A stretch of 64,000 nt of DNA from an uncultured archaeon (GCA_964392445.1 CAYMPD010000001.1:46698-110697); one strand, 5' to 3'; counted from the first letter of the stretch, positions 4,243 through 64,000 are shown. Numbers and translations: made by a program. Notes: generated by a model not told the origin, from the letters alone.

Positions 4243-5646
4243 TTATGTAAATGGATCATCCAAATCAGGGGACTCTTCGAAAAGAAATAATCCACTCTTT
4301 TTATCCATCCAAACATTTCGGTATTTATTCGTTCCTAATATTTGTCTGAACAGGGTAGTAGAGGCAACTCTAAACCCTCTTCTAAGATTAACAGGTGGTA
4401 AAATGAATCCATTACCAACTACCGAAAATGGCTCTAATGTAGATACATTATCACCTTCGCGCTCAACAAAAGAACTATAGCCAATAACCGCAGCTTCCAT
4501 CCTACCACCAAAAACACCGGAATTGTTCAAAATAACTGAAGGATATAATATATCATCATCTCTTAATCCAGTAATTTCAGTATCTTGACCTATAGAAACT
4601 CCATGGCCTATAATTGAATTGCTTATGTAGATATCTCCATCACCTCTCCCAGGATTAAAATCTGATCCTATCAGAACATGGCCACCAAATTGGATTTTAG
4701 CTCTCTCTACCTCTTCTAATGATTTTTCGTGAACTAAAACTCTCCCAGACGAAGTATCAAGTCTTTCATAATCATCAAAATCCAACCAATCATAATCACC
4801 AGTAATCGCTTTACCATTAGCACGTAAATAAGCCTTGATAGTTCCAAAGTCCTCCCAATCTTCAATCCTTCCTACCCCTTGTTGCCTTTGACCATAAGCA
4901 TACATTGAAACACCCTGATCAAGGAAATAAGGGAATATATCTCCTCCCATATCATCAAGTTTTACTCCATCCTCAATACCCTCTTCTAATATGTCTAAAA
5001 TAGTTGGAGAGAACATTACAATAGCTGTATTTATATAATCTGATGCGGGATCGGGTGATTTTTCTCTGAAATCCAATATACGGCCAGATTCATCGAATTT
5101 AACTGTTCCAAATTGATCTATCCCTGGCATTGAACCCCAATAAGTTACGCCTATGGTTACTCCTGGTGCATCTTCGTGTACTCTTTGATGGTATTTAGCC
5201 ATATCAATTGGATCAAAATTTGCAAAATTATCAGCATTTAATACCAGAATCAAATTATCCTGGATTTTTTCTCTATTGTTTCTTAAAAAATGGATAAAAG
5301 CGTCACCACTGCCTTCTGTTACACTTCTTCTCTCAAGAGATTTTTCTGGATCATAATAAGTTGAATATCTAATAGATAAATTATCTGCAATATTTCTACC
5401 GTCCTTCAAATCAGCAGGTACAAAAATATCATTAGCTAATCCATGTGTTGTAATATAACCTCTAAGTTCCTCCTGGTGATCCTGGAGAGATAGATATAAC
5501 ATTTCAACTACAGCCCTTAAGGGTGTTCTATTAGCTATATCTAACCAACCCTTTGATATTCCCATCTCAACTCCACCTATGGTCAGAGGATATAATCTAG
5601 TAGCTTCTCCACCTACAGGCACATAAAATACTAATTCTTTAAGCAT
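4243..5646 (-). CDS. Sugar-1-phosphate nucleotidyltransferase (GlgC/RmlA-like) with C-terminal left-handed beta-helix
   Basis: 467 aa; N-terminal GGEATRLYPLT (G-x-G-T-R-L-x-P-L-T pyrophosphorylase signature); Gly/Ile-rich hexapeptide-like C-terminal region. Confidence 0.7.
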   Translation of the reverse strand: MLKELVFYVPVGGEATRLYPLTIGGVEMGISKGWLDIANRTPLRAVVEMLYLSLQDHQEELRGYITTHGLANDIFVPADLKDGRNIADNLSIRYSTYYDPEKSLERRSVTEGSGDAFIHFLRNNREKIQDNLILVLNADNFANFDPIDMAKYHQRVHEDAPGVTIGVTYWGSMPGIDQFGTVKFDESGRILDFREKSPDPASDYINTAIVMFSPTILDILEEGIEDGVKLDDMGGDIFPYFLDQGVSMYAYGQRQQGVGRIEDWEDFGTIKAYLRANGKAITGDYDWLDFDDYERLDTSSGRVLVHEKSLEEVERAKIQFGGHVLIGSDFNPGRGDGDIYISNSIIGHGVSIGQDTEITGLRDDDILYPSVILNNSGVFGGRMEAAVIGYSSFVEREGDNVSTLEPFSVVGNGFILPPVNLRRGFRVASTTLFRQILGTNKYRNVWMDKKSGLFLFEESPDLDDPFT

Positions 5647-5743: not shown

Positions 5744-5848
5744 TGGGCCGACCCAGAATCGAACTGAGCTTTTCGCCTATCCTGGTCATACCTGTAAGGG
5801 TTCCGCGATCAAAAGACCTCGACGTCCTAACCGATAGACTATCGGCCC
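5744..5848 (-). tRNA. tRNA-like gene with about 30-nt insertion; anticodon arm not resolvable (atypically spliced tRNA or pseudogene)
   Basis: Minus-strand sequence has perfect 7-bp acceptor stem GGGCCGA/TCGGCCC with discriminator A, canonical D-arm (GTCT-ATCGGTTA-GGAC) and T-arm (CTCAG-TTCGATT-CTGGG). The 54 nt between D- and T-arm cannot be folded into a 5-7-5 anticodon arm with any single canonical or non-canonical intron I tried. Confidence 0.45.
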
Positions 5849-9360: not shown

Positions 9361-10686
9361 ATGGCACTCAAAGACATGGGAAAGAGTATAAGCGACTTAA
9401 TGAGGAGAGTACTAACCAAAACAACGGTTGACAGGGACTCTGTAGAGGCTTTAGTAAAGGGTCTTCAAAAAATCCTTCTAAAAGCGGATGTTGACCTTAA
9501 ACTAGTTTATGATCTCTCCCAAAGAATAAGAGACAGATCACTCAAGGAAAAACCACCAGAAGGGTTAACACTCAGAGAACATGTAAGTAAGGTAATCTAC
9601 GAGGAACTGGTAAACTTGCTCGGAGAAAGTCAAGAAACACTGATTGGAAAGAAAAGGATAATGCTTGTCGGTCTCTTCGGATCGGGGAAAACTACTAGTT
9701 CAGCTAAAATAGCAAAACACCTGAAAAAACAAGGTTTAAGAGTAGGAATGATCGCTGCAGATTATCACCGTCCCGCTGCCCCACAACAATTACAACAATT
9801 AGGAAATAAAATAGATGTTCCTGTTTATTACTCAGATACTAAAAGCCCTTTGGAGGCTTTAAGGTCGGGATTAGCCAAATTTCATAAATTAGATAGTATT
9901 ATAATCGACACTGCAGGTAGAGATGCTTTAGACGAAGAACTAGCCGAAGAGCTAAAAAAAATGTACGAAATTGTTAAACCAGACGAAGTTCTATTAGTTA
10001 TACCTGCGGATATAGGGCGTATAGCAGGAAAACAGGCTAGAGAGTTCCATAAGCTCGCTAAAATAACCGGGATTATTGTTACTAAAACAGATGGTACTGC
10101 AAAAGGAGGAGGCGCACTCTCGGCTTGTTCTAACACGGCGGCAAAGGTTAAGTTTATTGGTACTGGGGAGAAGTTGGATGATTTTGAACCTTATGATCCT
10201 GTTAGGTTTGTTTCCCGACTTTTAGGTATGGGGGACCTTGAAGGGCTTCTGGAAAAAGCAAAGGATGCTGAATTTAAAGAAGAAGATATGCAAAAAATAC
10301 TCTCTGGTAAGTTCAGTCTTCAAGATTTCTATGACCAAATATCGGGAATGGACAAGATGGGACCACTGGATCAAGTGATGGACATGATTCCTGGAATGGG
10401 GCACATGGTACCGGATGATATGATAAAAACTCAGAAAAAAAAGATGAAGAAGTGGAAATATATTATGGATTCTATGACTAAGAAAGAAAGAGAGGGTGAA
10501 GATGATATTCATGCATCGAGGATTAAAAGGATCGCTAAAGGTTCTGGAACACAAGAAAGTGATGTTAGGGAATTATTAAAACAGTATAGACAAAGTAAGA
10601 AAATGATTAAAAAACTTGGTGGGATGAAAGGTATGAAAAGAGGTAATCTTGCTAAGATGGCTAAGAAATTGGGTATGAAGTTATGA
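9361..10686 (+). CDS. srp54: Signal recognition particle protein SRP54
   Basis: 441 aa; NG domain GLFGSGKTTS, DTAGR, TKTD; Met-rich M domain (MGDLEGLL...MDMIPGMGHM). Confidence 0.95.
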   Translation: MALKDMGKSISDLMRRVLTKTTVDRDSVEALVKGLQKILLKADVDLKLVYDLSQRIRDRSLKEKPPEGLTLREHVSKVIYEELVNLLGESQETLIGKKRIMLVGLFGSGKTTSSAKIAKHLKKQGLRVGMIAADYHRPAAPQQLQQLGNKIDVPVYYSDTKSPLEALRSGLAKFHKLDSIIIDTAGRDALDEELAEELKKMYEIVKPDEVLLVIPADIGRIAGKQAREFHKLAKITGIIVTKTDGTAKGGGALSACSNTAAKVKFIGTGEKLDDFEPYDPVRFVSRLLGMGDLEGLLEKAKDAEFKEEDMQKILSGKFSLQDFYDQISGMDKMGPLDQVMDMIPGMGHMVPDDMIKTQKKKMKKWKYIMDSMTKKEREGEDDIHASRIKRIAKGSGTQESDVRELLKQYRQSKKMIKKLGGMKGMKRGNLAKMAKKLGMKL

Positions 10687-11900
10687 AAGTAAAAGAAAAA
10701 CTAATCAAAGTCCTGGAAGATGAATACGTCTGCAATAGATGTTTAGGAAGACAGTTTGCTAATCTACTTTCAGGCTACACAAACGAAGAAAGGGGTGAAA
10801 TACTCAGACAATACCTAGCCATGCTAATCGACTCAGGAGAGAAAATAGAGATTAACAAAACCAATTTCTACGAAATAAAATTTCATCTAAAGACTATAAA
10901 ACCCAAAAAACCAGGAAAATGTTCTGTTTGCGGGGATTTATTCCCGAAACTTAAAAAAAAAGTGAAAAAAATAGTTAAGAAATTGGGAAATTACGATTAT
11001 GGTACATTTCTAGTAGGTTCTAGGCCTTCTTCTGAATTGCTCAATAAAGAACAAAGACTCTGGGAAAAAGTAGGCATAGAATGGTGCGAAACCATAAAAT
11101 CAGAGATTAATCGGGTAATTGGAAAGGAAATTGAATCATCTACAGGAAAAGTTATGAAAAGAAAGCTTCCGGATATAACCATACTTTATGACATGACTAC
11201 AGACGAAATAAAACTCAACGTCCGCTCAATCTTTGTTTACGGAAAGTATCAAAAACTGGTTAGAGATATGCCTCAAACAACCTGGAAAACAAGAATTTAC
11301 CCTGTTGCTGTTGAAGATATTGTAGCAGAGCCTTTTATGAAGCAAACTAAAGCCGAAGATCATACGCTTCACGGCTGTGGGAGGGAAGACGTAGATGTTA
11401 AATGTCTGGGTTGGAGGCCTTTTGTTTTGGAACTACATAATCCTCAAAAAAGAGAGATTGATCTTAAGAAAGCAGAAAAAAAGGTAAACAAGTCCAAAAA
11501 AGTGAATGTAAAAGACTTAGAAATAACCAATCACAGGAGAGTGACCAGAATCAAATCAATGAGACCGGACAAAACTTATCTAGCAGAAGTAGAATTCAAA
11601 GAACCATTAAAAAACCTGGAAGAATTAGAAGCTCTCAATGGAACAGTAATATCCCAGAAAACACCTACAAGAGTGATGACAAGAAGAGCAAACAAGACCC
11701 GAAAAAGACGGGTAAAGGATATAAAATATAAATCCCTAAACAAAAAGAAGTTGGAATTGACGGTAAAAACAGAAGCAGGAACATATATCAAAGAACTGAT
11801 TCATGGAGACGAGGGTAGAACCCAACCCAACATATCAGAATTAATAAACAATAAAGTTAAAAGTATAAAGTTAGATGTAATAAAAGTACATTGTGATTGA
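10683..11900 (+). CDS. pus10: tRNA pseudouridine synthase Pus10
   Basis: 405 aa; N-terminal Zn-ribbon with CNRCLGRQF (Pus10 CxxCLGR motif) and second CxxC; catalytic-core signature GREDVDVKCLG containing the catalytic Asp. Confidence 0.8.
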   Translation: MKVKEKLIKVLEDEYVCNRCLGRQFANLLSGYTNEERGEILRQYLAMLIDSGEKIEINKTNFYEIKFHLKTIKPKKPGKCSVCGDLFPKLKKKVKKIVKKLGNYDYGTFLVGSRPSSELLNKEQRLWEKVGIEWCETIKSEINRVIGKEIESSTGKVMKRKLPDITILYDMTTDEIKLNVRSIFVYGKYQKLVRDMPQTTWKTRIYPVAVEDIVAEPFMKQTKAEDHTLHGCGREDVDVKCLGWRPFVLELHNPQKREIDLKKAEKKVNKSKKVNVKDLEITNHRRVTRIKSMRPDKTYLAEVEFKEPLKNLEELEALNGTVISQKTPTRVMTRRANKTRKRRVKDIKYKSLNKKKLELTVKTEAGTYIKELIHGDEGRTQPNISELINNKVKSIKLDVIKVHCD

Positions 11901-18063: not shown

Positions 18064-18157
18064 GTATTATTTTAAGAATTTCCTACTTTTATACTTTACT
18101 ATTCAGATACCCCCATAATTAACAAAAATGGAAAGAATAACAGGAAATTCCCAAAAT

Positions 18158-19093
18158 TTAATCTTTCTTCAACTTAATCTTCATCATATCTCTAGCAACA
18201 ACAGCATCAGGAAGAACTTCTCTTGCTTGGTCTTCCAGTTCTTTAGGATCAGTATATCTTCGGCTAATATGAGTGAGAATAAGTTTCTTAACACCAGCTT
18301 TCTTTGCCAATCTTGCGGCTTCTTTAACATCAGCATGAGCCTTAGAACCAACATCTTCCTCGAGGAAAGTCCCGTCATGTATCAGAAGATCCGCGTTCTT
18401 AGAAATTTTAATAATATTATCACAGGGAGCAGTGTCCCCAGAATAAACAACCTTCAAACCTTCCTTCACATAACCAACATCCTCTATCCTAATCTCCTTA
18501 TCTTCCCAAACCATCTTATCTTCCTTTTTCAATTTTTTAAGCCATGGTCCTCTATTTATCCCCATCTCCTCAAGCTTATCCTCATAAATATTCCATTTAT
18601 CTTTCTCCTTAAAACAAAAACCAACAGTAGGAACAGAGTGAAGAACAGGTATTGAACTTATCTCGTAGTTCTCATCCTCGTCTATTTTAGTAATCTCACT
18701 ACCTTCAAACGGGACATTCACTGCTTTAACTGGGAATCTTAATCCAAAGTAACCCATGTCAAGGATGTTTGATACAAATCTTTCAGCCTCGGGAGCAAAT
18801 ATGGTCAAAGGTTTGTCTCTTTTTTCCAGGTTCATAGTTTGTATAAGTGGTATTAATCCCGCAAAATGATCAGCATGCCAATGACTGATAAAAATCTTGT
18901 CAATCGCCATAAAACTTACATCCGACTTCATCAGTTGTTTTTGGGTTCCCTCCCCACAGTCGAAAAGAAATACCTGTCTTTCATTTGTAAAATGTTCTAG
19001 AACTATTGCTGGGTGATTCCTATGAAGACTAGGTATGCCTGACACTGTACCAAGGAATGTTATTGTTATCATAAGTAATTCTTTTAACCTCAA
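18158..19093 (-). CDS. rnz: Ribonuclease Z (tRNA 3' endonuclease)
   Basis: 311 aa; metallo-beta-lactamase motif HWHADH and downstream His/Asp ligands; size of short-form RNase Z. Confidence 0.85.
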   Translation of the reverse strand: MRLKELLMITITFLGTVSGIPSLHRNHPAIVLEHFTNERQVFLFDCGEGTQKQLMKSDVSFMAIDKIFISHWHADHFAGLIPLIQTMNLEKRDKPLTIFAPEAERFVSNILDMGYFGLRFPVKAVNVPFEGSEITKIDEDENYEISSIPVLHSVPTVGFCFKEKDKWNIYEDKLEEMGINRGPWLKKLKKEDKMVWEDKEIRIEDVGYVKEGLKVVYSGDTAPCDNIIKISKNADLLIHDGTFLEEDVGSKAHADVKEAARLAKKAGVKKLILTHISRRYTDPKELEDQAREVLPDAVVARDMMKIKLKKD

Positions 19094-54015: not shown

Positions 54016-54441
54016 TTACCTCACTGGTTTCTGCTTTTTACCTGCAAGTATTTCTGATAAGGCAACTCCATTCACTTTGACAACTTTGTATTTCAAACCC
54101 CACTGACTTCCAACGGGACCACCTTGAGAACCACCTACACCCTCTATCAAAACCTCGTCATGTTCAGTTATTTTATCAATCGCATGGTCACCTGGAACAA
54201 AGGCTGTAACCCTAATATTGTTCTTAACTAATTGTACTCTGACGGTTTTAATCAAACCAGAGTGAGGCTGTTTTTGCTCGCAAGATCTTTTATCAATAAC
54301 TATTCCTCTAGCTTGGGGAGCACCTTCTAACGGCTCTTTCTTTTTGAGATTGAGTTGTCTACGCATGTATTTATTATCCTTCCATTTGAATTTCTTTCTA
54401 TCTTTCTTAAGTTTTCTCGCGGCAAATTCTCCTCTAGCCAT
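54016..54441 (-). CDS. rps12: 30S ribosomal protein S12
   Basis: 141 aa; PKKPNSA-like and VRVQLVKNN...AFVPGDGH uS12 motifs. Confidence 0.9.
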
Positions 54442-54857
54442 TATTTCACCCTCAAATCTGATACATTATGGACTCTCTTTAATATTTCCCTATATATTTT
54501 TATTTTTTCCCCCCCACGCCCAATCACATAACCTTTATCGGATTTATCAACTTTTATCTCTATCTCAACCGAATCAGTATTATTGATCACAGTTACTTCC
54601 TTTGCTTGAGGGATTAAATTTTTAACGAATTCAACAAGATTAGGCGAGTATTCGAAGACTTTAACATTCTTTTCAATAGATTTTTCAACGTTTTTGATAG
54701 AACTTCCGCCCCTACCTATAGCCAACCCAATCTTCCCTTCTTCTACTATAAAATAAACGTCATCTTCATCAACAAAACAGTCTTTTACATGAACTTTTGT
54801 TATATTTTCAAATAAGTTCAGTAGTCTTATAGTCTCCATATTAAGTACAATTGTCAT
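54441..54857 (-). CDS. nusA: NusA-like transcription termination factor (two KH domains)
   Basis: 138 aa; two GxxG KH motifs ([21 protein letters not shown]); canonical position L30e-NusA-S12. Confidence 0.8.
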
Positions 54858-55126
54858 TTTTTACTCCCTTTTATTGCTAGCACGCTTACTGAAAATGGTT
54901 TACCGCAAACCAAACCCAATTCCAAGTTATCTTTGGGGTATTCTTTTACGATTATTTTTGAAATTTTTGAATTGTGAAGTATATTTTCCAATTTATCTCT
55001 TGGTAAATTATTTGAATGAACTACAAGTTTTGGTTTTCCAGTTTTAATTTCCTTTATTACACTTTTATAACCGAATATTATTCTTTTCTCCTTAACTGCG
55101 TCTTTTATAGTTTTATTCAAATCCAT
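54854..55126 (-). CDS. rpl30e: 50S ribosomal protein L30e
   Basis: 90 aa; L30e/L7Ae-fold size and conserved position after rpoA''. Confidence 0.8.
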   Translation of the reverse strand: MDLNKTIKDAVKEKRIIFGYKSVIKEIKTGKPKLVVHSNNLPRDKLENILHNSKISKIIVKEYPKDNLELGLVCGKPFSVSVLAIKGSKK

Positions 55127-57693
55127 TAATCTTCACCCATCCTTGCAACCAGATCAAATATTCCGGTACCCACGGGAACTTGCTGATTTATCATAACATT
55201 TTCAAATAAACCTGAGAAATCGTCAACTTCACTTCTAACCGAGGCCTTAATTAGGTGTTTTACTGTCTCTTCGAAACCCGCCCTTGTAAGTACAGAAGAT
55301 TTCATTCCAGCAACACCATACCTTCCTATCGCCTCTAACTCCCCTGTGAACACCATTATATCCGTCAAAATCATTACATGTCTATCATCTACATTCAAAC
55401 CCTGTTGAGACATCGTAGATTTTGTTTCCTCTATCAAAGCTCTTCTAGTAGCCTCTATACCCAGAACTTCTTGAACCTCGTAGAAATTATTAGTATGACA
55501 TCTCTTTGAGTCAACTTCTTCCATTTTAAGCACTTCGGAGTAATTAGATCCGAATGTTCTTATAACCCAGTCATCACCTTCCCTTAGAACAACCGCATTT
55601 GAAACTCCCTTAAGACCAAGTACGTTAATATTAAGTAATCTTTTTTTCAATTTCCTAAGATATTTAGTACTCAATTCCTTGTCCTCATCCTTGGATTCGA
55701 TTGTTACCCTGCTCTGCCTGACTGTAACCTTATTTCTTCTAAACTTCTTATTTATTAATTTAACTATCTCTTCCCTCTCTGACTTTTTAGTATCCTTAAG
55801 CTTAGCTCTGATTCTTTTATCAGTTAAATCCAATGAAACAGAATCTAGATATGATTTCATCTTTTTCTCTTTTATTTTATTAGCAAATCTCTCAGCTTTC
55901 TTTTGGGTATTGTATTTTCCCCTAAGATAAACAGTCATAGTTGGTGTTCTTGGCTCTTTTCTAGCATCGAATATTTCTATCAAACGAGGTAAACCAAGTG
56001 TAACCTGAAGACCAGCAGAACCCGCAAAGTGGTAAGTTCTCATTGTATTGTGTGTAACTATTCCATCAAAAGTTGTGAATGTCTCTAAGCCGTCAACAGA
56101 AAGATCGTAAACATATTCTTTTGTCGGTTTTACATAAGAAATTTCAACTATCTCGTCCCAGACAACATCCGAGTTAAACATCCTCTTCATGATTTCAAGT
56201 TCTTCGTCTATATCCACATTCTTTTCTTTAGCAAGTCTCTCAAAAAGGTTTATGTATCTGTAAAGTGTGGTTCTTCCTATCTTTTGTCTTTTAGTAAAGT
56301 TGTTAACATATCTTGTTGGATAGTTCAGTTTTTTTGCTGTTCGATGAAATAAATCACCAAATCCAGATATCATATCTGTGAAATCTTGAGAACTATTATC
56401 CCAAAACTTTTCTGCCATTTCAGAGAGCTTTACCAATCTCTTTCTCTTTTTCTCTATATCAGATCCTATCCTTGACAAGAATATGGGTGCATATTTGTAA
56501 GGAATAAGGAGGTAGTATTGTTTTTCATCTTTATTTTTACTGGCAAATATACCAAACCTAGTAAGTAAAAGTTTAATGCCATCTATTAGTTCTTCGGAAT
56601 TAGAATGTACCCTTATCATTTTTCTACTAACACTCACACTACCATCTCCATCAAAGTATCCCCTTAAAAGGCCAGAAACAAAATTTTCTTTCGCACTGTA
56701 AGCAAATTCTGGAACTCTTTTATTATAAGATCCCTTACCACAAGTATTCTCAATAAAGCGAGAAAATACACATGAATTTATCTCAAAATCTCTTGATGGT
56801 CCAAAAGCTCCTCGATATTCTCTGGTTTTAAAATCTACGTTTAACATTTGAGCGAAATTTTTGAAATTGGTTGAAAATCCCTTACTTATATTGGTAATTC
56901 TAATTTGACTATTCAAACAGCTGCCTTCAGAAAGATAAGCACCACTAAACCAACCAAATATTGAATTTAAAGGTATTTTCTCAGGAATTTTATTTATATC
57001 GTGAGTAGAAGAGAAAATCTGTCTATCTTTAACAAAGTATCTATCGGAAGGAACGTAATCTAACATGTTCAGATGTCCATTGCAATTTTCTGGTAAATAC
57101 TTCATCACTGGAATCCTATCACTGATACTTAGCTTTTTACCCGCTATTGGAATTACTTTATTGTTTTTTCTGATTAAGAACGAGTGATGATCTGTTGCGG
57201 TAATTATTCTCCCAGATTTTGTTTTTATTTTCATTAGTTTTTCATTAGTTTTATGTCTGATGCAAGAAGATATTCTCTTCCATTTAATTTTTTCATCTTG
57301 ATCTAAACTTAAAGTGAAAACATCCACGCCTTCAGGTAAATCGCAAATCTCATGTCCTTTTTCTCTTTCGAAGTTATAACTGTCTAGCATTTCATCCACA
57401 AATTCCCCAATTTTAAGGATTCTTATGTTATCGTCCATTTTTAGAATAAGTCTTTCATTATAATCGGTCGACATCTGAGTAGCTGGTTCAGAGAGTGATT
57501 GAGCAGAAATTATGCCTATAGCCTCACCAGGTTCAAATGAACTCTTAAGGTATCTTTTTTTAACTTCTTCTATCAATTTATTTCTCTTATAAGAACTAAA
57601 TTTCTCCTTCTTGCAAAGGCTCTCTATTTGATCCATTATTTCCATTGGTAATTCTAACTCATCTAAATATTTGGTCTGAGATTTTTTTGACAT
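55126..57693 (-). CDS. rpoA2: DNA-directed RNA polymerase subunit A'' (Rpo1C) interrupted by an in-frame intein
   Basis: 855 aa vs about 380 for A''; extein junction SEPATQM | TMRTYHFAG reconstitutes the conserved GEPGTQMTLRTFHFAG motif. Confidence 0.9.
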   Translation of the reverse strand: MSKKSQTKYLDELELPMEIMDQIESLCKKEKFSSYKRNKLIEEVKKRYLKSSFEPGEAIGIISAQSLSEPATQMSTDYNERLILKMDDNIRILKIGEFVDEMLDSYNFEREKGHEICDLPEGVDVFTLSLDQDEKIKWKRISSCIRHKTNEKLMKIKTKSGRIITATDHHSFLIRKNNKVIPIAGKKLSISDRIPVMKYLPENCNGHLNMLDYVPSDRYFVKDRQIFSSTHDINKIPEKIPLNSIFGWFSGAYLSEGSCLNSQIRITNISKGFSTNFKNFAQMLNVDFKTREYRGAFGPSRDFEINSCVFSRFIENTCGKGSYNKRVPEFAYSAKENFVSGLLRGYFDGDGSVSVSRKMIRVHSNSEELIDGIKLLLTRFGIFASKNKDEKQYYLLIPYKYAPIFLSRIGSDIEKKRKRLVKLSEMAEKFWDNSSQDFTDMISGFGDLFHRTAKKLNYPTRYVNNFTKRQKIGRTTLYRYINLFERLAKEKNVDIDEELEIMKRMFNSDVVWDEIVEISYVKPTKEYVYDLSVDGLETFTTFDGIVTHNTMRTYHFAGSAGLQVTLGLPRLIEIFDARKEPRTPTMTVYLRGKYNTQKKAERFANKIKEKKMKSYLDSVSLDLTDKRIRAKLKDTKKSEREEIVKLINKKFRRNKVTVRQSRVTIESKDEDKELSTKYLRKLKKRLLNINVLGLKGVSNAVVLREGDDWVIRTFGSNYSEVLKMEEVDSKRCHTNNFYEVQEVLGIEATRRALIEETKSTMSQQGLNVDDRHVMILTDIMVFTGELEAIGRYGVAGMKSSVLTRAGFEETVKHLIKASVRSEVDDFSGLFENVMINQQVPVGTGIFDLVARMGED
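56047..57471 (-). mobile_element. intein (475 aa) with LAGLIDADG homing-endonuclease domain in rpoA''
   Basis: Begins Ser (STDYNERL), ends ...IVTHN followed by Thr (+1); internal LLRGYFDGDGSVS (LAGLIDADG block) and second DOD-like block; coordinates derived from codon positions 75-549 of the ORF. Confidence 0.8.
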
Positions 57694-60146: not shown

Positions 60147-61943
60147 TCATTCCTCTTTTACAACTATTTTTGGATGTATTAACATACTCTTTAGCTCGTC
60201 TAAAAGAAGCTTGAAAGCATAAGCCATTTTAACTTCAATAATCTTAGAATCTCCACAAACAGGACAGAATTTTTTGTTTTTTATTTTATCATAAACAGCT
60301 GGTAAACCACATTCTTTGCATATCGGAATCTTTGTCTTGTCTGCATCAAATCTTTCTTTGAGTAATAGAGAACTACCATGAGCGATTAAACAGTCCTTCT
60401 CCATCTCTCCTAATCTAAGTCCTCCTCTCTTAGATTTTCCTTCTGTAGGTTGCTTTGTCAATAAAGTGACAGGTCCTCTGGATCTTGCGTGTATCTTATT
60501 TGAAACTAAGTGATCTAATTTCTGGTAAAAGACGCTTCCAGCAAATATATTATTCTTGTACTTCTCACCTGTATCTGCATTATAAAATGAGTCTTTCCCA
60601 TTCTCGTTAAATCCGTTTTCTTCTAATTTCTCTCTTAAATCCTTCTCTGAAACAGGATGAAAAGCAGGACTCATTATCCTTTCACCTTCTAAAGCAGATA
60701 CTTTACCCGTCATTATTTCTAAAAGTTTTCCCATAGTCATCCTTGATGGAATTCCGTGGGGATCAAATATTATATCCGGAACAACTCCTTGTTTTGAAAA
60801 TGGTAAATCTTCTTGAGGAATAATTAAACCAATAACACCTTTCTGACCGTGCCTGCTCGCAAACTTATCACCTATTTCTGGTTTTTTCAAATCTCGAACA
60901 ACCACCTTGACAAGTCTATTTCCTCCCTCGCTCTCAGTTACGAAAACCCTATCAACTATCCCTTGCTCACCATGTCTTAACTTAACAGATGTCTCTCTGA
61001 GATTTTCCAAATCGGTAATAAATTGATCCGGACTTCCTAAGAATCTTAAAGGTGAGGTTTTACCTATTACAACCTGCTCGTTCTCCAGTTCTGTTTCAGG
61101 ATTAACGATTCCATCTTCTGGTAAATGTTTGTAAGCATCCTCTCCTCCGTATCCCTTCACACCAGGTTCTGGAACGCCTATAATATCCTCCTGACCACCC
61201 ATGTACCTTTTTTCCTCAGCTTCATAAGATCTGAAAAGATAGCTCCAAAACAAACCTCTTTCTATCGCGGACTTATTCATGATTACTGCGTCTTCTATAT
61301 TAAAACACTTGAATGGCATTAAAACCACAGTTGTGTTATGTCCACCAGAATGAGTTTCGTGTTGAAGGACATCGTCTATATGAGTTTTAACCAAGAATTT
61401 TTGGGGGTAAACAAGAATATTAGTTTTTGTGTCAACTCTCTTCAGAAAATTCGTAGAGAACATACCAATTGCCTGTCCAATCATCTTAGAACCAAAATTT
61501 ACTCTGTCACCACGATTGAATTCAGGAAAAGGAACAAAGGCAGTTGATATGCCAAAAATGACCAAAGGATCAAGTTCAAGATGTGTGTGTTCTTTTGTGA
61601 GGTTCTTAGGCTTGAGAGCTACATAAGCATTTTCTTCTTCCTCCGCATCCAAATACTCAATAATACCAGTGTTGATTAAATCGTGCCACTTCATTTCTCC
61701 CTTCTTTAATTTTTCCAAGTGTTCTCTCGTTAACTTGGGTTTACCATCTTCAACCACGATTAATGGTCTCCTTACCCTCCCAGGATCAGTGACTATTTTT
61801 ACCTCGTTAAGATATTCCAAATGAGAAATATTGATTTGATTAGGTACTTTTCCTGCTCTTCTTTTTTCTCTTAAATCATCTACTAATTTATCTGGTTCAT
61901 CGGTGTCCCCGACATATCTACCATCAATAAATATCTCTGTCAT
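60147..61943 (-). CDS. rpoB1: DNA-directed RNA polymerase subunit B' (C-terminal half of split Rpo2)
   Basis: 598 aa; GDKFASRHGQKG, C-terminal CxxC...CxxC Zn motif; 4-nt overlap with B''. Confidence 0.95.
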   Translation of the reverse strand: MTEIFIDGRYVGDTDEPDKLVDDLREKRRAGKVPNQINISHLEYLNEVKIVTDPGRVRRPLIVVEDGKPKLTREHLEKLKKGEMKWHDLINTGIIEYLDAEEEENAYVALKPKNLTKEHTHLELDPLVIFGISTAFVPFPEFNRGDRVNFGSKMIGQAIGMFSTNFLKRVDTKTNILVYPQKFLVKTHIDDVLQHETHSGGHNTTVVLMPFKCFNIEDAVIMNKSAIERGLFWSYLFRSYEAEEKRYMGGQEDIIGVPEPGVKGYGGEDAYKHLPEDGIVNPETELENEQVVIGKTSPLRFLGSPDQFITDLENLRETSVKLRHGEQGIVDRVFVTESEGGNRLVKVVVRDLKKPEIGDKFASRHGQKGVIGLIIPQEDLPFSKQGVVPDIIFDPHGIPSRMTMGKLLEIMTGKVSALEGERIMSPAFHPVSEKDLREKLEENGFNENGKDSFYNADTGEKYKNNIFAGSVFYQKLDHLVSNKIHARSRGPVTLLTKQPTEGKSKRGGLRLGEMEKDCLIAHGSSLLLKERFDADKTKIPICKECGLPAVYDKIKNKKFCPVCGDSKIIEVKMAYAFKLLLDELKSMLIHPKIVVKEE

Positions 61944-63490
61944 GGTTTACCACCCATATTTTTCTTAACATAATCAAACAGTAATTTCCTATCCTTTTCA
62001 GCTAAACCTGTTGTTACCCTAGCCATTATAGCCAAGTATTTTCTTAAACCAATTGTTGCTCCTTCTGGTGTCTGAGATGGATCTATTCTCCCCCAGTGTG
62101 TGGGATGTAATTCCCTTGCTTCAAAGTGTTCCTGAGTTGGTGTTAGTGGAGATAGGACATTCCGAATGTGAGATATAGTTTTAACAAAACTATCTCTTTC
62201 TAACCTCTGAGAAACACCAGTTCTCCCACCTACCCAAGAACCTATAGCTATTGCTGAGACTATTTGGTTTGTTAAAACATTTGATTCGACTATAGAAGGC
62301 AAAGGTGGGAATCTTCCTCTTTTCGTAAGTTTTTGATAATTATAATTTATCCTAGTTATTAGGCCCCACTTGCCAAGTAAAATTGATCTGAATAGAATCT
62401 CTAAAAGGTCGCCAACTAGTCTTATTCTCTTGTTGGAATAATGATCTAAATCATAATCAGGTATCTTGTCAAGGTTGGATTGAATTATTTTCTCGATGGC
62501 TTTTGCCAAGAATTCTCCTTTTTCGTATCTATTCTTTTCTTTCTGTCCCAAATGAGGTAGTAAGTATCTATCTATAATTTTCTCAGCCCTTGCTATCCTA
62601 TACTCTTTTTGAGGTATTTTTAGATGAGCACCTATTTCTTCTATCGCCTCCTCAACTGTTGAAGAGTCAGTTTCAAATAGATTTGAATAGAATTCCTGCT
62701 GTACTTCTGGATCATCAGATATTTTTTCTATTATTTCTTTGTCAGATTCTAGCCCCAAAGCTCTCAGAAGAATAACAACTGGAAGCCTGTTAATGTTAGC
62801 AAAGTTGATCCTTATTATTCCATCCGTCTTTCTTTCAACTATGTGTCTTTGAACATAACCATCTTTTGAAGAATGTATACGAGCGTTTTCTGTTATATTT
62901 GATAAGCTTGAGTCCTCAATAATAATCCGGTTAGGGCATATCTCTTCTATTAAAACTAGGACCCTTTCTGTACCATTAATGATAAAGTATCCTCCAGGAT
63001 CGTCTGGATCTTCGCCAGCTTCTATAAGTTCTCTTTTACTCATACCTGAAAGAGGACACATCTTAGATTTAATCATAACAGGTAAATCACCGAAATTTAC
63101 ATACATTGTTTCACTTTCTATCCCATTTAAAACAGGTGTCATTTCAATATACATTGGTGCTGCGTAACTGAGATCCCTCATCCTAGCCTCTAAAGGAAGT
63201 ATTTCTCTTATAGAACCATCCGCCTCTTTTACTGACGGTCTTCCTATTTTAAACTTACCGAGTTTTATCTTGAAATCTCCTATATCAGGAACCTCTGGCT
63301 TAATTTCTTTTATTTCCTTTATAATTCTAGGTATTCTTGACTCGATGAACTCATTGAAAGATTCTAACTGAAAATCTATAAATCCCTCTTCTTTTACAAA
63401 TGATTCTAACAATATTTGAAATCCTTCTAAATCGTTCTTTTTTAAATTAGATACCTTCTTTTCCTTTTGTTGGATTTTAGACGACTTCAA
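61940..63490 (-). CDS. rpoB2: DNA-directed RNA polymerase subunit B'' (N-terminal half of split Rpo2)
   Basis: Conserved N-terminal LESFNEFIE region. The longest ORF (to 63553) would overlap tRNA-Asp by 44 nt, so an in-frame TTG at 63488-63490 is proposed as start; start uncertain. Confidence 0.85.
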   Translation of the reverse strand: MKSSKIQQKEKKVSNLKKNDLEGFQILLESFVKEEGFIDFQLESFNEFIESRIPRIIKEIKEIKPEVPDIGDFKIKLGKFKIGRPSVKEADGSIREILPLEARMRDLSYAAPMYIEMTPVLNGIESETMYVNFGDLPVMIKSKMCPLSGMSKRELIEAGEDPDDPGGYFIINGTERVLVLIEEICPNRIIIEDSSLSNITENARIHSSKDGYVQRHIVERKTDGIIRINFANINRLPVVILLRALGLESDKEIIEKISDDPEVQQEFYSNLFETDSSTVEEAIEEIGAHLKIPQKEYRIARAEKIIDRYLLPHLGQKEKNRYEKGEFLAKAIEKIIQSNLDKIPDYDLDHYSNKRIRLVGDLLEILFRSILLGKWGLITRINYNYQKLTKRGRFPPLPSIVESNVLTNQIVSAIAIGSWVGGRTGVSQRLERDSFVKTISHIRNVLSPLTPTQEHFEARELHPTHWGRIDPSQTPEGATIGLRKYLAIMARVTTGLAEKDRKLLFDYVKKNMGGKP

Positions 63491-63544
63491 CTCATCACCA
63501 AAATAGAAGCGCCCTGGACGGGATTTGAACCCGTGTCCCGGGAG

Positions 63545-63562
63545 TTCTCCCACTTAAAGTGT
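63545..63562 (-). other. tRNA-Asp intron 2 (about 18 nt, canonical 37/38)
   Basis: ACACTTTAAGTGGGAGAA follows anticodon-loop CTGTCA and precedes C38-TCCCG. Confidence 0.6.
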
Positions 63563-63575
63563 TGACAGTCCCGGA

Positions 63576-63605
63576 TTCTACAACATTTTAAATCATTAAA
63601 TGTTT
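63576..63605 (-). other. tRNA-Asp intron 1 (about 30 nt, D-arm region, non-canonical position about 24/25)
   Basis: Sequence AAACATTTAATGATTTAAAATGTTGTAGAA (RNA sense) interrupts ...TATCA | TCCGGGA...; boundaries +/-2 nt. Confidence 0.55.
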
Positions 63606-63705
63606 TGATAGACCGAGCTACACTACCAGGGCAGATTAGGTTAAAACAGAATTTTGTAGTTTGTTTTTGGGAGATCAATAAACAACACCGGGGTAATTAT
63701 TAAAT

Positions 63706-63819
63706 AGTTGGCAACGTCCTGGATTTCCCGCCAATGGCAGTACACCCCAGATCACTAGAGGTCTTAATTACCGTGTTCGGATGAGAACGGATGTTTCCCC
63801 TCTGTTTTGGTCGCCAACT
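63706..63819 (-). rRNA. rrf: 5S ribosomal RNA
   Basis: Minus-strand RNA of about 114 nt with 10-bp terminal helix I (GUUGGCGAC/GUUGCCAAC with a G-U that is an A-C mismatch on the other strand), GUUCUCAUCCGAACACGGUAAUUAAG (loop C/helix III CCGAAC...GUUAAG consensus) and GUACUGCC; TTTAAAT TATA box about 25 nt upstream. Confidence 0.75.
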
Positions 63820-63917
63820 CTAATACTATATACCATCATCTATTTAAATCTAATCAATATCGTGTATTTTTAGGAAATAAGATATAAATGTTTTATTTCT
63901 CTTAAAAGAAAGGTCAA

Positions 63918-64000
63918 TCCCCTCGGCCGGGGTTGAACCAGCAACCTCACGGTTTCTACGAACGCTTACTGGTGATGAATGCAAAACAGCAAACATCTAC
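63918..64000 (-). tRNA. partial tRNA (3' portion; 5' part beyond window edge, probably intron-containing)
   Basis: Minus strand: T-arm GCTGG-TTCAACC-CCGGC, acceptor 3' strand CGAGGGG + A ending at 63918; complementary 5' strand CCCCTCG not present within the remaining 80 nt, implying an intron and truncation by the window. Confidence 0.35.

Follow-up and report, generated by a model that had tools for sequence, protein, structure and literature searches.

Archaeal tRNA genes that contain several introns, introns at non-canonical sites such as 20/21, 22/23 and 25/26, and relaxed splicing motifs are described mainly from Crenarchaeota, Nanoarchaeota and ARMAN (PMC4090602, PMC3239211, PMC12397907, in the sections that treat such genes). 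The range of intron lengths quoted for these genes is 11-129 nt (PMC4090602). The tRNA-Pro(UGG) gene of Pyrobaculum islandicum, for example, has introns at 25/26, 56/57 and 37/38 (Sugahara et al., 2007, as cited in PMC4090602). Non-canonical disruptions are also found in ARMAN / Micrarchaeota, DPANN archaea with small genomes, whose splicing endonuclease, EndA, is of the epsilon2 type (Fujishima et al., 2011, PMC3239211; Kaneta et al., 2018, PMC5829648). For Aenigmarchaeota, we found no literature survey of tRNA introns or of EndA.

Here we describe a tRNA-Asp gene in a stretch of 64,000 nucleotides of DNA (the window) from an uncultured archaeon. The locus is confirmed as a real tRNA-Asp gene with two short introns, a reading that is well supported; as judged from sequence, it very probably functions as the tRNA-Asp(GUC) gene of a member of the Aenigmatarchaeota (DPANN), with bulge-helix-bulge (BHB) introns at 24/25 and 37/38. 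Like the P. islandicum tRNA-Pro gene, it combines a 37/38 intron with an intron in the D-arm region in one colinear gene, and like the multi-intron genes of Thermoproteales, as far as the sections of PMC4090602 describe them, it has short introns with BHB or relaxed HBh'/hBH motifs. Unlike the P. islandicum gene, it belongs to a DPANN host and not to a crenarchaeon, and has two introns, not three; its D-arm site is 24/25, vs. 25/26 or 22/23 in the Thermoproteales genes covered there. The site 24/25 lies outside those named in PMC4090602, whose list ends with "etc.," and we do not claim that it is new. The host resembles ARMAN / Micrarchaeota in being a DPANN archaeon with a small genome and non-canonical disruptions, and presumably relies, as they do, on a tolerant EndA. 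Both introns have homologs in tRNA-Asp genes of related Aenigmatarchaeota: intron 2 at the same locus in one group of relatives (L001-L004), and intron 1 in another (L014-L018), where the site, central helix and 5' bulge are identical. The type of gene is therefore already known, and the locus adds one member to it.

The gene and its orthologs

The 123-nt precursor gene lies on the minus strand of the window (63632..63510) and consists of three exons and two introns (Table 1). Read 5' to 3' as the reverse complement, it runs GCCCTGGTAGTGTAGCTCGGTCTATCA (exon 1), AAACATTTAATGATTTAAAATGTTGTAGAA (intron 1), TCCGGGACTGTCA (exon 2), ACACTTTAAGTGGGAGAA (intron 2) and CTCCCGGGACACGGGTTCAAATCCCGTCCAGGGCG (exon 3). 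On direct reading, every pair of the acceptor stem (GCCCTGG/CCAGGGC) and of the T arm (ACGGG-TTCAAAT-CCCGT) is Watson-Crick, as the first-pass annotation of this DNA had noted for a gene of this length. It had also proposed that removal of 30 nt after ...GTGTAGCTCGGTCTATCA (63605..63576) and of 18 nt after CTGTCA (63562..63545) leaves a 75-nt tRNA-Asp(GUC); ARAGORN agrees, calling the spliced 75-nt product tRNA-Asp(gtc), and our boundaries match those proposed exactly. The two introns that it saw, one of them at a non-canonical D-arm position, lie at 24/25 (in the D stem 3' strand) and at the canonical 37/38 site. The spliced tRNA has an acceptor stem of 7 bp, a T stem of 5 bp, an anticodon stem of 6 bp in which the 26-44 pair is counted, and a D stem with G10-U25 as its closing pair; none of the four stems is broken, and disabling changes are absent from the exons. 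It contains G34 U35 C36, C38, G73 and G10-U25. We take G73, C38 and G10-U25, besides the GUC anticodon, to be the tRNA-Asp identity elements, as in other systems. CCA is not encoded. The G+C content is 63% in the exons, 17% in intron 1 and 39% in intron 2, in a genome of about 35%.

Table 1. Coordinates of the tRNA-Asp gene, its parts and the neighboring 5S rRNA gene (window numbering).
Feature	Position	Strand	Description
Exon 1	63606..63632	-	tRNA positions 1-24: acceptor 5' strand, D stem 5' strand, D loop, first 3 nt of D stem 3' strand; colinear with uninterrupted orthologs L001-L004
Intron 1	63576..63605	-	30 nt, AAACATTTAATGATTTAAAATGTTGTAGAA, between tRNA positions 24 and 25
Exon 2	63563..63575	-	tRNA positions 25-37: U25, C26, anticodon stem 5' strand, loop to A37 including GUC
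Intron 2	63545..63562	-	18 nt, ACACTTTAAGTGGGAGAA, canonical 37/38 site
Exon 3	63510..63544	-	tRNA positions 38-73: C38, anticodon stem 3' strand, 4-nt variable loop, T arm, acceptor 3' strand, discriminator G73
Intron-1 central helix	63608..63611 (5' strand CUAU)	-	pairs with GUAG at 63578..63581, 4/4
Intron-1 bulges	63605..63607 (5', CAA); 63575..63577 (3', AAU)	-	3 nt each
Intron-1 inner hairpin (h')	63582..63604	-	AACAUUU (63604..63598) / AAAUGUU (63588..63582), 7 bp, 9-nt loop
Intron-1 outer helix (h)	63613..63617 (CUCGG, D loop)	-	with CCGGG at 63570..63574 (anticodon stem 5' strand), 5 bp
5S rRNA	63706..63818	-	73 nt upstream of tRNA-Asp; Rfam RF00001, 69.4 bits

Standard searches do not report the gene: it is missed by default ARAGORN and by Rfam at the gathering threshold, and ARAGORN without the intron option calls no tRNA in the unspliced gene or in either singly spliced version. 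Relaxing the Rfam search of 63400..64000 to E<=10 yields a tmRNA match of 17.8 bits over the 3' part only, which is spurious. A split or permuted tRNA gene is ruled out, the three exons being contiguous and colinear within 123 nt. Group I and group II self-splicing introns have a ribozyme core of hundreds of nucleotides; they are ruled out by the size of the inserts (30 and 18 nt) and by the lack of any Rfam intron match in 63400..64000 at E<=10.

Scanning one genome per species with RpoB'' gave 13 loci, and the best relatives are MAGs of Candidatus Aenigmatarchaeota (DPANN) with 89%, 83% and 82% identity, which places the genome in a DPANN lineage. A scan of metagenomes with the exon pattern, allowing a gap of 10-40 nt at the D-arm site, added five contigs (L014-L018). 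Syntenic tRNA-Asp orthologs are present on 11 related contigs in all (L001-L004, L014-L018 and L005/L006); the gene order 5S rRNA, tRNA-Asp, rpoB'' is common to the window and its relatives, and the exons of the window gene and the related Aenigmatarchaeota genes are nearly identical. In L001-L004 (78-89% RpoB'' identity), the D arm is unbroken (...GGTCTATCATCCGGGACTGTCA) and equals exon 1 of the window joined to exon 2; these genes have a single intron of 29-35 nt at 37/38. In L014-L018 (70-76% identity), the only intron is in the D arm, 17-20 nt long and placed after an identical ...TATCA (AAGTTTCAGCTGTAGAG, AAACATTGAATGTTGTAGAG, AAGTTTCAACTGTAGAG, and AAACGTTAAATGTTGTAGAT in two contigs); the anticodon loop is unbroken, with no 37/38 intron, and each gene splices in silico to a 75-nt tRNA-Asp. 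The tRNA-Asp genes of L005/L006 (65% identity) have no introns. Only the window gene, among those sampled, has both introns; none of the others has so long an intron 1 (30 nt vs. 17-20 nt) or so short an intron 2 (18 nt vs. 29-35 nt).

These orthologs bear directly on the exon boundaries. Since some have only the 37/38 intron and others only the D-arm intron, the two segments removed from the window gene are two separately attested introns. In the alignment with the syntenic orthologs, intron 1 is one clean 30-nt insertion in a continuous ...GGTCTATCATCCGGGACTGTCA, and the anticodon and T stems show compensatory changes across orthologs. A 1-nt ambiguity exists at each junction because A is repeated, and the motif geometry favors 24/25 and 37/38. 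The boundaries are fixed independently by the related genomes, not by choosing a fit.

The host is archaeal by the genes of the window, which encode split RpoB''/B' and RpoA'/A'', aEF-2, aEF-1alpha and a class I LysRS. The same-strand order is partial tRNA, 5S rRNA, tRNA-Asp, rpoB'', rpoB', rpoA' and rpoA'', with S7, EF-2 and EF-1alpha further downstream. The rpoA'' gene (55126..57693, minus strand) contains an intein with a LAGLIDADG homing-endonuclease domain (Pfam Intein_splicing, LAGLIDADG_3). The mechanically called RpoB'' ORF (61940..63553, minus strand) has a GTG start that falls inside the tRNA-Asp gene; the true start is likely the TTG at 63490, 19 nt past the tRNA and preceded by GGTGAT. 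The arrangement GGTGAT-N3-TTGAA also occurs in L001 and L002, with close variants in other relatives. Between the 5S rRNA and tRNA-Asp genes is an element, GGTG-N5-7-TTATTGAT(C/T) (63673..63689, minus strand), which is present 10-20 nt downstream of the 5S rRNA gene in the window, L001-L004 and L014-L017, and absent from L005/L006. The rest of the spacer is not conserved, and a similar TATTGAT occurs about 40 nt upstream of the 5S gene. The element could be a promoter or a processing signal.

Other interrupted tRNA genes occur in the window and its relatives. One, at 5744..5848 (minus strand), was missed by the first-pass tools; it scores 38 bits with the Rfam tRNA model (gathering threshold 29) only if the region is searched alone, and 44 nt replace model positions 30-40. 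If two segments are taken out, AGGTCTTTTGATCGCGGAA at 5819..5801 (19 nt, following position 29) and GGTATGACCAGGAT at 5792..5779 (14 nt, at the 37/38 site), what remains is a 72-nt tRNA-Val(TAC) with a perfect anticodon stem, in which, as worked out by hand, the central helices of both introns are only 3/4 paired. ARAGORN -i miscalls this gene as tRNA-Cys(aca). The 3' part of a tRNA (T arm, acceptor ...GCTGGTTCAACCCCGGCCGAGGGG) is seen at 63918..64000 (minus strand), cut by the window end and preceded by an apparent long intron after GTAG; at the syntenic place upstream of the 5S rRNA gene, L001 and L004 have a tRNA-Tyr(GTA) with an intron of 43-44 nt. In the more distant L013 (CP066684.1, an Aenigmatarchaeota chromosome), tRNA-Asp(GTC) at 5322..5420 lacks an intron at 37/38, but its D-arm region is interrupted by some 26 nt. 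When possible BHB-like cuts were enumerated and the products tested with ARAGORN, no convincing BHB register emerged for this insert; the adjacent tRNA-Lys(CTT) (5427..5540) has a 37-nt intron. The record of L004 (MFRS01000003.1) bears the title "Candidatus Micrarchaeota archaeon RBG_16_49_10", whereas its RpoB'', with 78% identity to that of the window, falls within the clade of MAGs labeled Aenigmatarchaeota; the phylum label is probably out of date.

Folding motifs at the two junctions

The motif geometry adopted here is a 4-bp helix with two flanking 3-nt bulges, in which anticodon nucleotides 34-35 lie within the helix, as given in the description of the motif in PMC4090602; each cut is placed between bulge nucleotides 2 and 3. 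Folding of the D-arm junction, a check that the first-pass annotation had suggested for both introns, is predicted to give a motif close to a canonical BHB: the central helix is paired 4/4, the bulges are CAA and AAU, and the inner helix has 7 bp. The outer helix is offset by 1 nt, with the U at 63612 unpaired opposite the 3' bulge; in the ViennaRNA MFE structure, this U is instead paired with the first bulge A, which adds an A-U pair and leaves a 3' bulge of 2 nt. The intron-1 motif also forms in the MFE structure of the full 123-nt precursor (-44.2 kcal/mol, z = -4.0), a stability that none of the shuffled sequences reached. A motif matching it (central helix 4/4, inner helix at least 7 bp, length fixed at 30 nt) is seen at 2 of 127,896 positions on both strands of the window (1.6e-5).

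The orthologs that contain intron 1 preserve this motif. Its central helix is invariant and paired in all of them, the outer helix has 5 bp in 6/6 intron-bearing genes, and the outer five pairs of the inner helix are kept throughout. In an alignment of the window with L014-L018 (5 distinct sequences), 14/14 pairs of the motif are 100% paired, with compensatory double changes at two inner-helix pairs (A-U to G-C and C-G to U-A), and registers slid by 1-3 columns are only 31-47% paired. Five distinct sequences make a small sample, and the observed covariation score and percentage paired are reached by 18 of 500 column shuffles. The covariation among orthologs supports the motif, short of proof.

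At 37/38, the motif is relaxed. It has both bulges (CAA and AAC), the inner helix (CACU/AGUG, 4 bp) and the outer helix, which is the anticodon stem (7 bp, made up of 6 standard pairs and 26-44). Its central helix CUGU/GGAG, however, has 3/4 pairs with one G.G mismatch, and when the region is folded by itself, the MFE structure adopts a register other than the canonical one. A motif of this quality matches 0.33% of window positions. The homologous introns of L001-L004 end in GGCAGAT/C and form a perfect central helix, CUGU/GCAG; among the homologous 37/38 introns, the mismatch is confined to the window. On this comparison, intron 2 of the window is a shortened, relaxed form of what appears to be an ancestral canonical intron.

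The locus might instead be a decaying tRNA-Asp pseudogene, in which the 30-nt segment is junk DNA that stays in the transcript and the G.G mismatch of intron 2 reflects decay. The insert is indeed absent from the closest relatives, L001-L004, intron 2 has been cut down to 18 nt with a mismatch that the relatives lack, and standard tRNA finders miss the gene. Yet five other contigs have an insert at exactly this site that shares the central helix and bulges and shows compensatory changes within its inner helix, the exons are free of disabling change, and the position between 5S rRNA and rpoB'' is conserved. DPANN genomes are small and usually have one gene per tRNA, general knowledge that also counts against decay, and we consider a pseudogene very improbable. 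A different architecture or identity, e.g., one long intron in a tRNA-SeC(tca), is hardly credible. ARAGORN with the intron option does make this call, with one 32-nt intron, i(36,32), and permissive enumeration of BHB-like cut pairs in the window gene gives many other products that ARAGORN accepts (Arg, Phe, Leu, "Stop"). ARAGORN accepts far too many of them, so that enumeration alone cannot discriminate, and the comparison of orthologs was used instead. None of the alternatives pairs two good motifs: they have 3/4 central helices with inner helices of 2-3 bp, or lose the D arm. Moreover, the intron-free L005/L006 genes and the singly interrupted orthologs are all unambiguous tRNA-Asp(GTC) genes colinear with the three exons; a different set of boundaries with a non-Asp identity is what the first-pass annotation had named as speaking against its reading. 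The locus is, then, best read as a functional tRNA-Asp(GUC) gene.

Splicing route and endonuclease

In the splicing of archaeal BHB introns, cleavage by EndA leaves a 2',3'-cyclic phosphate and a 5'-OH, which are joined by an RtcB-type ligase. By analogy, the primary transcript of the window gene would contain both introns and, following transcription and end processing, EndA would cut inside both 3-nt bulges that flank the 4-bp helix of each intron, four sites in all. An RtcB-type RNA ligase would then join the three exons to a 75-nt tRNA with a GUC anticodon, G73, C38 and the G10-U25 pair. One CCGGG strand is used twice in the predicted structures, in the outer helix of intron 1 and in the anticodon stem, which is the outer helix of intron 2. 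Since the 5' half of the anticodon stem is taken up by the outer helix of intron 1, the two full motifs presumably cannot coexist. In constrained folding, the conformer with the full intron-1 motif has -43.6 kcal/mol; a value of -38.7 kcal/mol is obtained if the anticodon stem and the intron-2 motif form and the intron-1 motif is reduced to its shorter HBh' part. Probably, either splicing is ordered, with intron 1 removed first and the precursor refolding thereafter, or intron 1 is recognized in the shorter, relaxed HBh' form.

The first-pass annotation had gone further, and held that the gene "marks" the EndA of the genome as an epsilon2 or heterotetrameric enzyme. This claim is not supported. 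Several DPANN lineages with many disrupted tRNA genes have an alpha4-type EndA with an extra "L3" loop, and alpha4 (L3 loop), (alpha-beta)2 and epsilon2 enzymes all occur within DPANN, in a survey that did not include Aenigmarchaeota; the subunit type contributes least to substrate recognition by EndA (Kaneta et al., 2018, PMC5829648). Subunit type is a poor predictor of specificity in DPANN, and the tRNA-Asp gene therefore does not mark the type of enzyme. The relaxed features, i.e., the G.G mismatch of intron 2, the 1-nt offset in the outer helix of intron 1 and the 3/4 central helices in the second split tRNA of the window, are slight, and are at most a hint of a tolerant enzyme.

The window has 58 ORFs of 120 aa or more. 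No match to EndA was found in the 55 of these that were scanned with Pfam, the other three being 54016..54441, 54441..54857 and 18128..18655, the last of which overlaps the tRNase Z gene; four EndA-sized ORFs that lacked a Pfam match were rescanned at E<=0.05. A tblastn search with M. jannaschii EndA (verified as PDB 1A79) returned nothing from the window and 18 related loci (235 kb). RtcB and archease were likewise not found among the Pfam-scanned ORFs of the window. Two other genes of tRNA metabolism are present: a tRNase Z-like metallo-beta-lactamase (18158..19093, minus strand) and a Pus10 pseudouridine synthase (10683..11900, plus strand).

Distribution and history of the introns

The most interesting aspect of the locus is the uneven distribution of the introns among close relatives. 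It was mapped on an RpoB'' tree, which is built from one protein (NJ, Kimura distance, 200 bootstraps). The window is sister to L001 (200/200) within a clade of the window, L001, L002 and L003 (200/200), to which L004 is next (132/200); L014-L016 form the sister clade (200/200), with L005/L006 outside, and the weak nodes have 119/200 and 132/200. On this tree, the 37/38 intron was gained once, basal to the window's clade. The D-arm intron occurs in the L014-L016 sister clade and in the window, but in no other member of the window's clade. Such a pattern calls for three or more independent losses, or else for a re-gain through transfer or gene conversion. The intron core of the window (AAACATT...AATGTTGTAGA) matches that of L015/L017 except for a 10-nt loop expansion and two substitutions, and L014/L016, which are sister lineages of L015/L017, are less like them in the intron core than the window is. 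The window contains no further copy of intron 1 with up to 3 mismatches besides the intron itself, and it thus gives no evidence of transposition between tRNA genes.

Re-gain would mean that the D-arm intron, as a mobile BHB intron, re-entered the window's lineage from one like L015/L017 by lateral transfer or gene conversion and reinserted at the same site. The distribution on the tree, the number of losses that vertical descent would need and the likeness of the intron cores all speak for such an event. However, tRNA introns are regarded as easily lost in a precise manner, so that several losses are not implausible, and most intron positions are constrained by the motif, which could account for the likeness. 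The tRNA exons are too short for a test of recombination tracts, the tree is a simple NJ of one protein with some weak nodes, and no similar intron copy exists elsewhere in the window. On balance, we regard transfer as unlikely. The fuller scenario, in which a mobile D-arm BHB intron was lost in the ancestor of the window's clade and re-inserted at 24/25 from the sister lineage, so as to yield the only sampled gene with both introns, in which the overlap of its outer helix with the anticodon stem would force an ordered, refolding-dependent splicing in two steps, we hold to be a little more doubtful still.

The locus leaves knowledge of how such introns work unchanged. It adds Aenigmatarchaeota to the lineages with multi-intron tRNA genes interrupted at non-canonical positions. 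Standard finders miss both the tRNA-Asp and the tRNA-Val gene in the window, and misses of this kind make the tRNA set of a MAG look incomplete. Finally, the relatives form a natural series for the gain and loss of BHB introns, with no intron, the 37/38 intron only, the 24/25 intron only, or both, over RpoB'' identities of 65-89%, and the same series would be useful for probing the substrate range of the EndA of this phylum.
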